A stretch of DNA of 50,514 nt. Source: a virus. Lineage: Duplodnaviria > Heunggongvirae > Uroviricota > Caudoviricetes. The position numbers and the translations under genes are program-made. Below are positions 48,883-50,514 of this stretch, piece after piece (the stretch's first letter is position 1; the number at the start of each line of letters is the position of its first letter). The stretch lies in the IMG/VR virus record IMGVR_UViG_2534681773_000022. The stretch is one strand, 5' to 3'. Under the pieces are notes generated by a model. The model did not search any database. It saw only the letters and a program-made list of their open reading frames with translations, and was not told the DNA's origin.

Positions 48883-49465
48883 TGGCATTCAGAATGAGTG
48901 AACAAGCACGGACCATAAAAATTTATAATCTGCTGGCCGGAACTAATGAATTTATTGGTGAAGGTGACGCATATATTCCGCCTCATACAGGTCTGCCAGC
49001 AAACAGTACCGATATTGCACCACCAGATATTCCTGCTGGCTTTGTGGCTGTTTTCAACAGTGATGAGGCATCGTGGCATCTCGTTGAAGACCATCGGGGT
49101 AAAACGGTTTATGACGTAGCGTCAGGGGACGAGTTATTTATTTCTGAACTCGGTCCGTTACCGGAAAATGTTACCTGGTTATCGCCGGAAGGGGAGTTTC
49201 AGAAGTGGAACGGCACAGCCTGGGTGAAGGATACGGAAGCAGAAAAAATGTTCCGGATCCGGGAGGCGGAAGAAACAAAAACAACCTGATGCAGGTAGCC
49301 AGTGAGCATATTGCGCCGCTTCAGGATGCTGCAGATCTGGAAATTGCAACGGAGGAAGAAACCTCATTGCTGGAAGCCTGGAAAAAGTATCGGGTGTTGC
49401 TGAACCGTGTTGATACATCAACTGCACCTGATATTGAGTGGCCTACGAACCCTGTCAGGGAGTAA
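48882..49465 (+). pseudogene. tfa: Tail fibre assembly protein Tfa, interrupted by a 1-nt frameshift in an A-tract near 49275-49285
   Basis: The 135-aa N-terminal ORF matches lambda Tfa up to …REAEETK, then stops; the Tfa C-terminus ([21 protein letters not shown]…) continues in the +1 frame to 49465. Confidence 0.6.
49304..49465. repeat. Direct repeat copy 1 (tfa 3' coding region), about 88% identical to 50352-50514
   Basis: Both copies end with the same …DIEWP.NPVRE* coding sequence and bracket the minus-strand methyltransferase gene. Confidence 0.7.
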
Positions 49466-49519
49466 TCATTGGGATTATGCCGCAGCACGTCTTAAGCAAG
49501 AACGTGCTGCGGTTGGATG

Positions 49520-50176
49520 CTATTTTTTCCCTGAAGCGGAAAACATTACTACAGTACCTTGAACCTTGGTTTTAACATTCTCGAAATGCTCTGAGAGTAT
49601 ATGTGTTAAGCCTTCTTCGGAATCTTTTGTGTTTGAAAAGATGCCTTTCTGATTGTAAATGCGCATCAGTTTTTGACCGAAGCTATTGTGCACAACTCCA
49701 TCGCCAAGAATTGTGGCTCCGTATAGAGTTCCATCGTCAGTTAAGGCCTGCGCCGCATTGCGTATTACACAGCTTTTTGTAGATATATTTCCAGGCAGGC
49801 AGTGAAGAAGGTAAAACATGGAAATGGAATCAAATTGACCATGTAACGCCGCGGGATAAGGTTCAAAAACATCATGGCTAATTTTATGTTTAATTTTTGA
49901 TTCCCCAGCCCTTGTAGATGCCGCGTTCAGGCTAGCTTCGTTCAAATCCATTAAAGATATCAGACTACTCTCAGGTACGTGAGTAAGGTAAAACCCAGTT
50001 CCAACACCAATATCCAGATGGTTGTTACCTACATGTTCCAGAAAGTGTGGAAGAAGGTGTTCCTTTGTAGGACATCCCCATGCAAGCCGATTTGATACTC
50101 CCAAAACCCACCAGTCATAAAGCTTTAGGGTAAGTGGTGTGTAAATTTTAGCCCCATCATCTGTGTTTTTTTTCAT
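49520..50176 (-). CDS. Class I SAM-dependent methyltransferase (cargo inside the duplicated tfa region)
   Basis: 218-aa ORF with AdoMet-binding motif LDIGVGTGFY; on the strand opposite the tail genes. Confidence 0.6.
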   Translation of the reverse strand: MKKNTDDGAKIYTPLTLKLYDWWVLGVSNRLAWGCPTKEHLLPHFLEHVGNNHLDIGVGTGFYLTHVPESSLISLMDLNEASLNAASTRAGESKIKHKISHDVFEPYPAALHGQFDSISMFYLLHCLPGNISTKSCVIRNAAQALTDDGTLYGATILGDGVVHNSFGQKLMRIYNQKGIFSNTKDSEEGLTHILSEHFENVKTKVQGTVVMFSASGKK

Positions 50177-50244
50177 TGATTTCACCATGTTATAGTTTTA
50201 TTTGTGAATTGAATCAATTATGGCGATGAATTACAAGGGGTTAA

Positions 50245-50514
50245 ATGCTGCCGCAGCATAGCGATATTGAAATAGCCTGGTATGCTTCGATACAGCAGGA
50301 GCCGAATGGCTGGAAGACCGTCACCACACAGTTCTACATCCAGGAATTCAGTGAGTATATTGCGCCACTGCAGGATGCTGTAGATCTGGAAATCGCAACG
50401 GAGGAAGAAAGATCGTTGCTGGAGGCATGGAATAAATATCGGGTATTGTTGAATCGTGTTGATACATCAACTGTACCTGATATTGAGTGGCCTGCAAATC
50501 CTGTCAGGGAGTAA
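50245..50514 (+). CDS. Tfa C-terminal-domain protein (second, diverged copy; possibly a remnant)
   Basis: 89-aa ORF whose last ~55 aa closely match the Tfa C-terminus at 49290-49465. Confidence 0.45.
50352..50514. repeat. Direct repeat copy 2 (tfa 3' coding region)
   Basis: See copy 1. Confidence 0.7.

Follow-up and report, generated by a model that had tools for sequence, protein, structure and literature searches.

Locus Organization and Identity

The right-hand end of the window (the whole analyzed stretch of viral DNA, 50,514 nt, IMG/VR record IMGVR_UViG_2534681773_000022) is the intact counterpart of the tfaD–ybcY–tfaX locus in the DLP12 prophage of E. coli K-12, an arrangement that is already annotated and not new. 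Taken as a whole, it is most probably the usual terminus of the right arm in a lambda-like E. coli prophage, consisting of stf, tfa, and a ybcY-tfaX accessory block. The locus itself matters little, being an intact version of the K-12 reference arrangement and present in the majority of E. coli genomes. It provides a clear, documented case of the conserved tfa 3' end as a recombination handle, which deletes, and appears also to re-assort, the cargo that lambdoid prophages carry at their tail-fibre end.

Alignment of positions 49028–50491 with DLP12 of K-12 MG1655 showed 96.7% nucleotide identity, and the annotated order in DLP12 is tfaD-ybcY(pseudogene)-tfaX-appY-ompT. The features of the locus are listed in Table 1. 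The equivalent of stf in UTI89 is annotated as a prophage tail fibre.

Table 1. Features at the right-hand end of the window
Feature	Position	Strand	Basis
stf, side tail fibre, 991 aa, intact	45907–48882	+	Pfam phage_tail_N, Phage_fiber_2, Collar
tfa N-terminal (fibre-binding domain) ORF, 135 aa, early stop TGA at 49287–49289	48882–49289	+	Caudo_TAP
A5 run where relatives have A6, marking the 1-nt deletion	49277–49281	+	Pairwise alignment with UTI89
Repeat R1: tfa 3' end, conserved C-terminal Tfa domain, +1 frame	49289–49465	+	
Strong hairpin followed by T-run, just 3' of the tfa stop; resembling a late-operon terminator	49479–49513	+	
ybcY-type class I SAM-dependent methyltransferase, 222-aa ORF	49520–50188	-	Pfam, phrog_2132
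Divergent ybcY/tfaX intergenic region, sigma-70-like hexamers on the minus strand	50189–50244	.	
tfaX-type ORF, 89 aa: 31 non-Tfa residues and a 58-aa Tfa C-terminal domain	50245–50514	+	phrog_2341
Repeat R2: second, diverged tfa 3' end, cut by the window end	50338–50514	+	

Distribution of the Methyltransferase Gene

The methyltransferase gene was present in 3,832 of the 5,426 complete E. coli genomes searched. The promoter-plus-tfaX segment reached a coverage of at least 80% in 3,430 genomes, and tfa, the methyltransferase gene, and tfaX jointly reached at least 80% in 1,499. Across genomes the cassette was 98–100% conserved. The same block [ybcY(-), tfaX(+), alpha/beta hydrolase(-), ompT(-), and int] was found in PhiR26_1, 2G7b, ev243, and Turner, where the fibre modules differ. 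The left breakpoint of the conserved block varied, lying either inside R1 at 49345 or just past R1 at 49480.

The GC content was 0.38–0.43 across 49500–50400, compared with about 0.50 in tfa and stf. The genes on either side of the methyltransferase gene are direct neighbours in related phages, and phage ev099 has a tfa without the cassette. The view that the methyltransferase gene is cargo, put forward in a preliminary description of this DNA, was supported: the gene is a moron, an accessory element of low GC content that lies on the opposite strand, is self-contained, and is absent from otherwise identical prophages. That description had named ubiquity at this position together with a lack of repeat-bounded polymorphism as evidence against its reading; this refutation largely holds, the gene being nearly ubiquitous and the arrangement already annotated in K-12, although such polymorphism exists.

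Repeats R1 and R2 and Loss of the Cassette

R1 and R2 are direct repeats of 177 nt with 87% identity and a spacing of 1049 nt, a match far beyond chance. They had been described as diverged copies of the tfa 3' coding region of about 160 bp; their nature held, while their length was slightly underestimated. In related genomes the repeat was about 50 nt longer (227 nt in total), continuing beyond the tfa stop and through the hairpin, which therefore indicates that R2 is truncated by the window end. Compared with UTI89, R1 reaches 49514, and the hairpin (RNA fold of -28.6 kcal/mol, z = -4.3) lies inside the repeated unit in relatives. The two repeats probably stem from distinct tfa alleles, of which they represent the 3' ends, each comprising the segment of the C-terminal trimerisation domain and the post-stop hairpin. 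No inverted repeats were found in 48800–50514, the tfa ends being in direct orientation. An invertible tail-fibre segment of the Gin/Cin/Pin type was rejected because the repeats are direct and the region has no invertase-sized ORF.

Comparison with prophages lacking the insert demonstrated a presence/absence polymorphism bounded by the repeats. In EFF60 and 190693, which have this prophage integrated at the identical ompW-yciE site, the cassette is absent and a DUF4376 remnant lies directly 3' of tfa. The single repeat copy in each was a chimera of the R1 5' part and the R2 3' part, and the crossover intervals were distinct. R1 and R2 therefore recombine, and deletion of the cassette was observed twice with different crossover points; these two R1 × R2 alleles are the ones present in the best 60 of 378 genomes. 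A separate internal deletion of the methyltransferase ORF was present in phage Ayreon. What was observed is loss by recombination between the repeats; the insertion of the cargo by recombination, suggested in the preliminary description, was not supported.

Most likely, the repeats are scars of a join between two phages. One old two-phage join fits better because the repeats are 13% diverged and ybcY-tfaX is conserved behind several fibre modules. The event would have been an old illegitimate join in which a phage carrying stf, tfa, the terminator, and ybcY was fused into the middle of the tfa gene of the other phage, leaving tfaX as the scar. No donor phage with tfa-ybcY and without tfaX was identified. 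A very unlikely alternative is that a site-specific or transposition-like event placed the cassette in situ, with R1 and R2 as a target or tandem duplication. The direct repeats flank the 823-nt unique segment exactly, as such an event would leave them; however, their divergence contrasts with the conservation of the cassette, and the cassette has no transposase or integrase gene and no inverted repeats. Moreover, Turner has the ybcY-tfaX pair with no intact R1, and in 2G7b and ev243 only 121 nt of R1 remain. A target-site duplication was rejected on the grounds of the repeat divergence and the missing terminal inverted repeats; no transposase is known to make a target duplication of 177–227 nt, which also counts against insertion in situ.

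After the join, the conserved 3' segment, which is common to many tfa genes, would provide homology for recombination. Crossovers between R1 and R2 delete the cassette, and crossovers with other phages would re-assort the ybcY-tfaX block among different fibre modules.

Analysis of the Methyltransferase

Pfam analysis showed that the ybcY-type ORF, which carries the segment HLDIGVGTGFY, matched Methyltransf_12, Methyltransf_23, Methyltransf_25, and Methyltransf_11, all above the cut-offs. The motif and these matches agreed with the earlier identification of a minus-strand class I SAM-dependent methyltransferase. Motif I (HLDIGVGTG) comprised residues 57–65, of which D59, G61, G63, T64, and G65 were invariant in 22 homologues; in the family alignment, motif I and many invariant residues were kept down to 56% identity. 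The class I fold, a seven-stranded beta-sheet in which strand 2 ends with an acidic residue, was recognised as well; the AlphaFold model had a pLDDT of 89. The true start is likely Met5 at 50176, giving a protein of 218 aa, and all homologues begin at Met5.

The protein matched phrog_2132 over residues 5–222 (E = 4e-157) and had the N-terminal signature YDWWVL...AW.C.T, which is specific to the YbcY family; this membership and the synteny with tfa and tfaX identify the gene as ybcY. It was identical to a protein cluster with 6,589 members, and the gene shared 99.0% nucleotide identity with the copies in K-12 derivatives (MGY and XL10-Gold).

The top Foldseek matches of the model were PmtA, JHAMT, SgvM, PfPMT, and NodS. 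Sequence matches to JHAMT, UbiG, RquA, and PmtA were weak, and a PDB sequence search gave weak matches to JHAMT and UbiG and nothing stronger. In NCBIfam the scores were 13–18 bits, far below the cut-offs of 162–390; the PmtA equivalog NF045882 gave 15.7 bits against its cut-off of 390. The structural match to PmtA (8ys9) was no better than that to many other methyltransferases. From sequence and model, the enzyme looks like a class I SAM methyltransferase of the small-molecule or lipophilic-substrate type. It would act in the cytoplasm on a small molecule, probably a lipophilic one.

It is improbable that the enzyme modifies RNA or the DNA of phage or host, as it might in anti-restriction or epigenetic control. 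The best fold matches are enzymes that act on small molecules or lipids. HMM classification, which had been suggested as a check, returned the Methyltransf families named above and no DNA methylase family of Pfam; N6_N4_Mtase, N6_Mtase, and MethyltransfD12 gave no Pfam match at E ≤ 0.01, while the separate DNA methylase ORF of this prophage (16860–17909), used as a positive control, scored 152 bits on N6_N4_Mtase. The DNA-methylase motif (D/N/S)PP(Y/F) was absent from the 222-aa sequence. Among the PADLOC defence models the sole match was mad2 (E = 0.009, 12.9 bits), which was not significant. Homologues in Salmonella, Enterobacter, Yersinia, Aeromonas, and Citrobacter were solitary genes in unrelated contexts, without a restriction partner. 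Judged on these sequence features, the methyltransferase is not a DNA methylase.

The neighbourhoods in these five genera shared no partner gene that would hint at a pathway. In the literature on ybcY and tfaX, context mentions and an RpoD SELEX/H-NS listing were found and no functional study. Few phage-borne genes of E. coli without a known substrate or phenotype are as prevalent as those for YbcY-type methyltransferases.

The tfaX Gene and the Intergenic Region

The region equivalent to tfaX is labelled by PGAP as a tail fibre assembly protein fragment with a missing N-terminus. An origin of the first 35 TfaX residues from a Tfa of a different type was considered and rejected: the alignment with the Tfa of Salmonella phage RE-2010 was convincing only from ...IAPLQD, so that 50245–50337 was treated as non-Tfa cassette sequence.

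Sigma-70-like hexamers (TTAACC-16-CATAAT) were located at 50244–50217 on the minus strand, at a frequency no higher than in shuffled sequence. The scan for promoters and terminators as a whole gave no excess of sites over chance; the hairpin escaped it owing to the length of the loop. Read on the minus strand, this hairpin lacks a following T-run, so the methyltransferase gene has no obvious terminator of its own. The orthologous spacer in K-12, where ybcY is a pseudogene, figures among the SELEX sites of the RpoD holoenzyme in PMC3946193, where H-NS binding is given for it too. In the lysogen, ybcY is presumably expressed from its own putative sigma-70 promoter, subject to H-NS.

Could ybcY and tfaX be a selected two-gene unit, in which an orphan TfaX, divergently expressed, interferes with how competing phages assemble their fibres? 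Co-occurrence of the two genes is about 90%, the tfaX ATG was conserved in 40 of 40 loci, the ORF belongs to a recognised family, and RNA polymerase binding is reported for the shared K-12 spacer. However, simple linkage over 56 nt explains the co-occurrence, and about a quarter of the tfaX copies, including those of K-12 and 2G7b, had a truncated, frameshifted, or replaced C-terminus, whereas the full-length methyltransferase was intact in 34 of the 35 copies in IMG/VR loci. Selection of the pair as a unit is accordingly judged very doubtful. Equally hard to credit is the fuller proposal that the pair is kept in about 65–70% of E. coli genomes as a two-part lysogenic-conversion unit, combining methylation of a lipophilic host molecule with poisoning of fibre assembly by TfaX. 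If it were true, the targets would be a quinone, an isoprenoid acid, or a phospholipid head group, with altered envelope or redox physiology, and the TfaX trimerisation domain would poison the tail-fibre assembly of competing lambdoid phages.

The Frameshift in tfa

The tfa gene of the window contains exactly one A fewer than that of UTI89, which is intact (194 aa, 585 nt). Both the break by a 1-nt loss in an A-run and the end of the N-terminal piece at ...EAEETKTT were as previously described. The C-terminus resumes in the +1 frame inside an ORF at 49205–49465, and the R1 ATG (49289–49291) overlaps the upstream stop (TGATG). The N-terminal piece covered positions 1–73 of the Caudo_TAP profile and the C-terminal piece positions 71–130 (100.6 bits). 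Because of the A6-to-A5 change, the N- and C-domains, which are in one frame in UTI89, lie in separate frames, and the gene lacks the two-domain Tfa (Caudo_TAP) architecture in a single frame. In Tfa proteins the N-domain is variable and the C-terminal helical domain is conserved (PMC9608196).

A 70-nt probe across the A5 site had no exact match in the 5,426 complete genomes. With a 36-nt deletion-specific probe, three of these genomes matched, as did two IMG/VR contigs with different tfa backgrounds. The wild-type (A6) allele was found in at least 120 IMG/VR contigs and in thousands of copies in complete genomes. The A5 allele is rare and sporadic; it has no bearing on the cargo and is not a feature of the locus.

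The change presumably reflects sporadic slippage in the homopolymer, arising either as a genuine mutation or as an error in the reads. That it is a homopolymer error of sequencing or assembly, tfa being intact and ordinary in the organism, is a serious possibility that falls just short of an even chance. A single base is affected within an A6 run, the abundance of wild-type copies and the lack of an exact match to the 70-mer are in keeping with an error, and the sporadic recurrence in unrelated tfa backgrounds is what a recurrent error would produce. On the other side, the remainder of the assembly is clean, the late region 25489–47645 being 99.6% identical to that of UTI89, with no coding indels and a sole homopolymer indel that is non-coding. 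The A5 allele also occurs in three finished genomes. Lambda-like phages tolerate the loss of side-tail-fibre assembly, the side tail fibre genes being dispensable, as the stf frameshift of lambda PaPa reportedly illustrates, and a real loss of tfa would likewise be tolerable. A real frameshift would split Tfa between the fibre-binding N-domain and the trimerisation C-domain and would probably abolish or weaken side-tail-fibre assembly.

Comparison with Known Systems

The closest system is tfaD-ybcY-tfaX of DLP12 (K-12 MG1655, b0561–b0563), which shares with the window the gene order, the orientation, and both R1 and R2. In DLP12, ybcY is a pseudogene and tfaD is annotated as coding, whereas the window has an intact ybcY and a frameshifted tfa; tfaX is shortened to 61 aa in K-12. 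Downstream, K-12 has appY-ompT, while the UTI89-type prophage has a DUF4376 remnant and attR at ompW.

PmtA (PDB 8ys9), JHAMT (7ec0), UbiG (4kdr), BelI/CysG, and SgvM shared 15–21% identity with YbcY, and none was singled out.

Morons of lambdoid phages are a concept of Hendrix and Juhala, with lom and bor of lambda as examples. The ybcY gene resembles them as an extra gene of atypical composition, with its own orientation and a putative promoter of its own, that is dispensable to the phage.

Laboratory lambda PaPa is said, in the work of Hendrix and Duda from 1992, to have an stf frameshift compared with Ur-lambda. The window resembles it in a one-base frameshift that would disable the side tail fibres, a non-essential system in a lambda-type phage; unlike in PaPa, the change is in the inter-domain linker of the chaperone gene tfa and may be a sequencing error.

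The lambdoid prophages of EHEC reportedly carry exchangeable effector loci downstream of the tail fibre genes, as Tobe and colleagues are said to have described in 2006. The cargo site between the tail fibre genes and attR is alike, but the cargo there is a type III secretion effector, and in the window it is a methyltransferase.

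Organization of the right end

The window was a lambda-like prophage with an integrase gene at its start and a stop codon exactly at its end. The preliminary description had reported a frameshifted tail fiber assembly gene (tfa), a minus-strand methyltransferase and direct repeats of the tfa 3' end, and the analysis bore out all three. Alignment with the equivalent prophage of E. coli UTI89 showed 3 differences in 1,715 nt, one of which was the missing A, and Pfam analysis placed the two tfa pieces, in separate frames, on consecutive positions of the Caudo_TAP profile (1–73 and 71–130). 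The 222-aa ORF (ybcY in K-12) matched Methyltransf_12/23/25/11, while the 89-aa ORF (tfaX), a member of phrog_2341, matched Caudo_TAP positions 75–130.

Features of the window (nt positions)
Feature	Position	Strand	Source
N6/N4 DNA methylase	16860–17909	plus	
tRNA-Met(CAT), tRNA-Arg(TCG)	17959–18120		
623-aa ORF, NanS-p-like	19650–21521	plus	
ORF, candidate defense model	23667–24287	plus	
ORF, candidate defense model	24229–25296	minus	
J	41609–45088		ORF list
lom	45156–45755		ORF list
stf	45907–48882		ORF list
135-aa ORF, ending EAEETKTT	48882–49289		ORF list
Tfa C-terminus ORF, overlapping, +1 frame	49205–49465		ORF list
A-run in tfa	49277–49281		
TGATG	49287–49291		
Repeat R1	49289–49465		
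45-aa ORF	49438–49575	plus	
Unique segment between repeats	49515–50337		
222-aa ORF with HLDIGVGTGFY	49520–50188	minus	ORF list
89-aa ORF	50245–50514		ORF list
Repeat R2	50338–50514		

The stf gene was 2976 nt long, compared with 3108 nt in the UTI89 allele, and contained internal diverged repeats of ~78–85% identity (~47300–47520 and 47434–47657, within 47300–47660). The 45-aa ORF, which overlapped the hairpin and the 3' ends of both tfa and the methyltransferase gene, corresponded to the RefSeq hypothetical protein WP_001309429.1, had no family match and was probably spurious. In UTI89, just past the window end (7813–8430 of locus L001), a fragment of a DUF4376 pseudogene lay downstream of tfaX together with an incomplete copy of ompW (attR); therefore, the prophage was located in ompW, with ~0.8 kb of it beyond the window end.

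Direct repeats and loss of the cassette

R1 and R2 formed a direct repeat of 177 nt with 87% identity. In UTI89 the similarity ran ~50 nt beyond the tfa stop codon, giving 227 nt in all, so the window end cut R2; a hairpin within this extension was strong (−28.6 kcal/mol, z = −4.3). The repeat was exactly the coding segment of the conserved Tfa C-terminal domain, plus the hairpin. Tfa proteins have a variable N-terminal fiber-binding domain and a conserved C-terminal helical trimerization domain (PMC9608196). The unique segment, with a GC content of 0.38–0.43 against ~0.50 in the flanks, contained nothing but the methyltransferase ORF and the region 5' of it.

The predicted R1 × R2 deletion product, built from UTI89, was used as a search query and was matched as one unbroken piece (99.1–99.3%) in two genomes, EFF60 and 190693. 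Both had this same prophage, again at the ompW-yciE-trp site, and in both the DUF4376 remnant came directly after tfa. Typing of the positions diagnostic for R1 and R2 showed that the R1 type in EFF60 extended to aligned column 165 and had given way to the R2 type by column 201, while 190693 switched between columns 121 and 159; these different crossover intervals indicate two independent homologous deletions. Phage Ayreon had lost sequence in a third way, through a deletion inside the ORF (about 49563–50214 in the window) that spared the 3' stub as well as the promoter region and the tfaX start, and in phage ev099 a related tfa was present with the cassette wholly absent. The repeats are recombinationally active. 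The proposal of cargo inserted by recombination was therefore partly right: a repeat-bounded polymorphism exists in EFF60 and 190693, but the documented event is loss, not insertion.

Frameshift in tfa

The A-run was A5 in the window and A6 in UTI89. A 70-nt probe across the site found no identical sequence among the complete genomes, and its best matches all carried the extra A. A 36-nt probe that could seed on no allele but A5 detected it in 3 of 5,426 complete genomes, where the copies concerned were different tfa genes, annotated as tfaR and tfaQ. Two IMG/VR contigs also carried A5, in tfa backgrounds just 95–97% identical to the window, while at least 120 contigs had the wild-type A6 tfa. 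Given its occurrence in varied tfa copies, A5 is a rare but recurrent homopolymer event, unrelated to the cargo. The assembly was otherwise clean: over 25489–47645 its identity to UTI89 was 99.6%, and coding indels were absent. A5 may be a real mutation or an error. If real, it parts the fiber-binding domain from the trimerization domain. At TGATG the new stop overlapped the ATG of the C-terminal domain ORF, and a two-piece Tfa produced through translational re-initiation is conceivable.

The methyltransferase

The methyltransferase was a member of phrog_2132 and its sequence was identical to that of a cluster with 6,589 members. In the family alignment, motif I (LDIGVGTG), D81, H105-D106, the YLLHCLPG segment and the N-terminal YDWWVL..SN..AW.C.T signature were kept down to 56% identity. 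All homologues began at Met5 of the window ORF, so the likely start is 50176, which GGTGA precedes.

The AlphaFold model was confident (pLDDT 89.4, pTM 0.86), and Foldseek against the PDB (E 1e-11 to 1e-10) retrieved the PE N-methyltransferase PmtA, JHAMT, SgvM, Plasmodium phosphoethanolamine methyltransferase and NodS. Weak sequence matches, all far under family cut-offs, were to JHAMT, UbiG, RquA and PmtA, enzymes of lipophilic substrates. The prophage encoded a separate genuine DNA methylase (N6_N4_Mtase, 152 bits). Homologues of 56–68% identity in Salmonella, Enterobacter, Yersinia, Aeromonas and Citrobacter were solitary in unrelated neighborhoods, some adjoining transposases or prophage debris, which fits a self-sufficient accessory enzyme without a pathway partner. 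In Citrobacter (L144/L145, 4001–5626), the neighbors of a 68%-identical homologue were genes for Cu/Zn superoxide dismutase and DinI and a fragment of Phage_tail_L; this too is the setting of a prophage remnant, with a classic moron nearby.

For K-12, the spacer between ybcY and tfaX appears in a published list of sites bound by RpoD holoenzyme, with H-NS (PMC3946193). In the window, a consensus scan found promoter-like hexamers, but no more than expected by chance. Among the IMG/VR loci, the methyltransferase was intact in 34 of 35 full-length copies, while about 1/4 of tfaX copies had a damaged or replaced C-terminus, suggesting selection on the methyltransferase but not on tfaX. Our best guess is a cytoplasmic enzyme, putatively expressed as a moron, that methylates a small and probably lipophilic molecule.

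Other genes of the prophage

Two ORFs in the interval from the lysis genes to the terminase matched PADLOC candidate defense models, 'cll' (E = 4e-31) and PD-Lambda-2_C/'beta' (E = 4e-32, also Pfam Beta_protein); UTI89 had DUF1398 and ynfO genes there instead, and the pair looks like a swapped defense-type moron. The 623-aa ORF (DUF1737, SASA sialate-O-acetylesterase domain, DUF6645) lay downstream of the Q antiterminator and tRNA genes, where UTI89 had only a truncated DUF1737 pseudogene. The two tRNA genes followed the DNA methylase; the equivalent UTI89 annotation was tRNA-Ile, Arg, Arg.

Comparison with other phages and E. coli genomes

Several phages shared a conserved block of ybcY(−), tfaX(+), alpha/beta hydrolase(−), ompT(−) and int, with differing fiber modules upstream. 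PhiR26_1, in which the gene is also named YbcY, had lambda-type stf/tfa upstream; 2G7b and ev243 had unrelated fiber genes, with R1 reduced to its last 121 nt; and Turner had tfa and an invertase ~1.7 kb away, without R1 beside ybcY. On its right side, the shared sequence also ended at differing points (50469, 50491 or 50514). Because R1 and R2 differed by 13% while the cassette was 98–100% conserved, one old illegitimate join is the simplest history. A phage with stf-tfa-hairpin-ybcY would have been joined to the tfa of a second phage midway along the gene, and tfaX would be the scar of that join.

Of 5,426 complete E. coli genomes, 3,832 had the methyltransferase gene at ≥95% identity, some of them in as many as 4 copies; at ≥80% coverage, the promoter-plus-tfaX segment was found in 3,430 and the whole tfa-ybcY-tfaX stretch in 1,499. 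YbcY-type methyltransferases are thus highly prevalent. The locus illustrates well how the 3' ends of tfa genes serve as recombination handles. In the reference annotation, the K-12 cryptic prophage DLP12 carries tfaD, ybcY (pseudogene), tfaX, appY and ompT in this order, and it aligned with 49028–50491 of the window at 96.7% identity; the tfa-ybcY-tfaX arrangement is a known and very common prophage feature.
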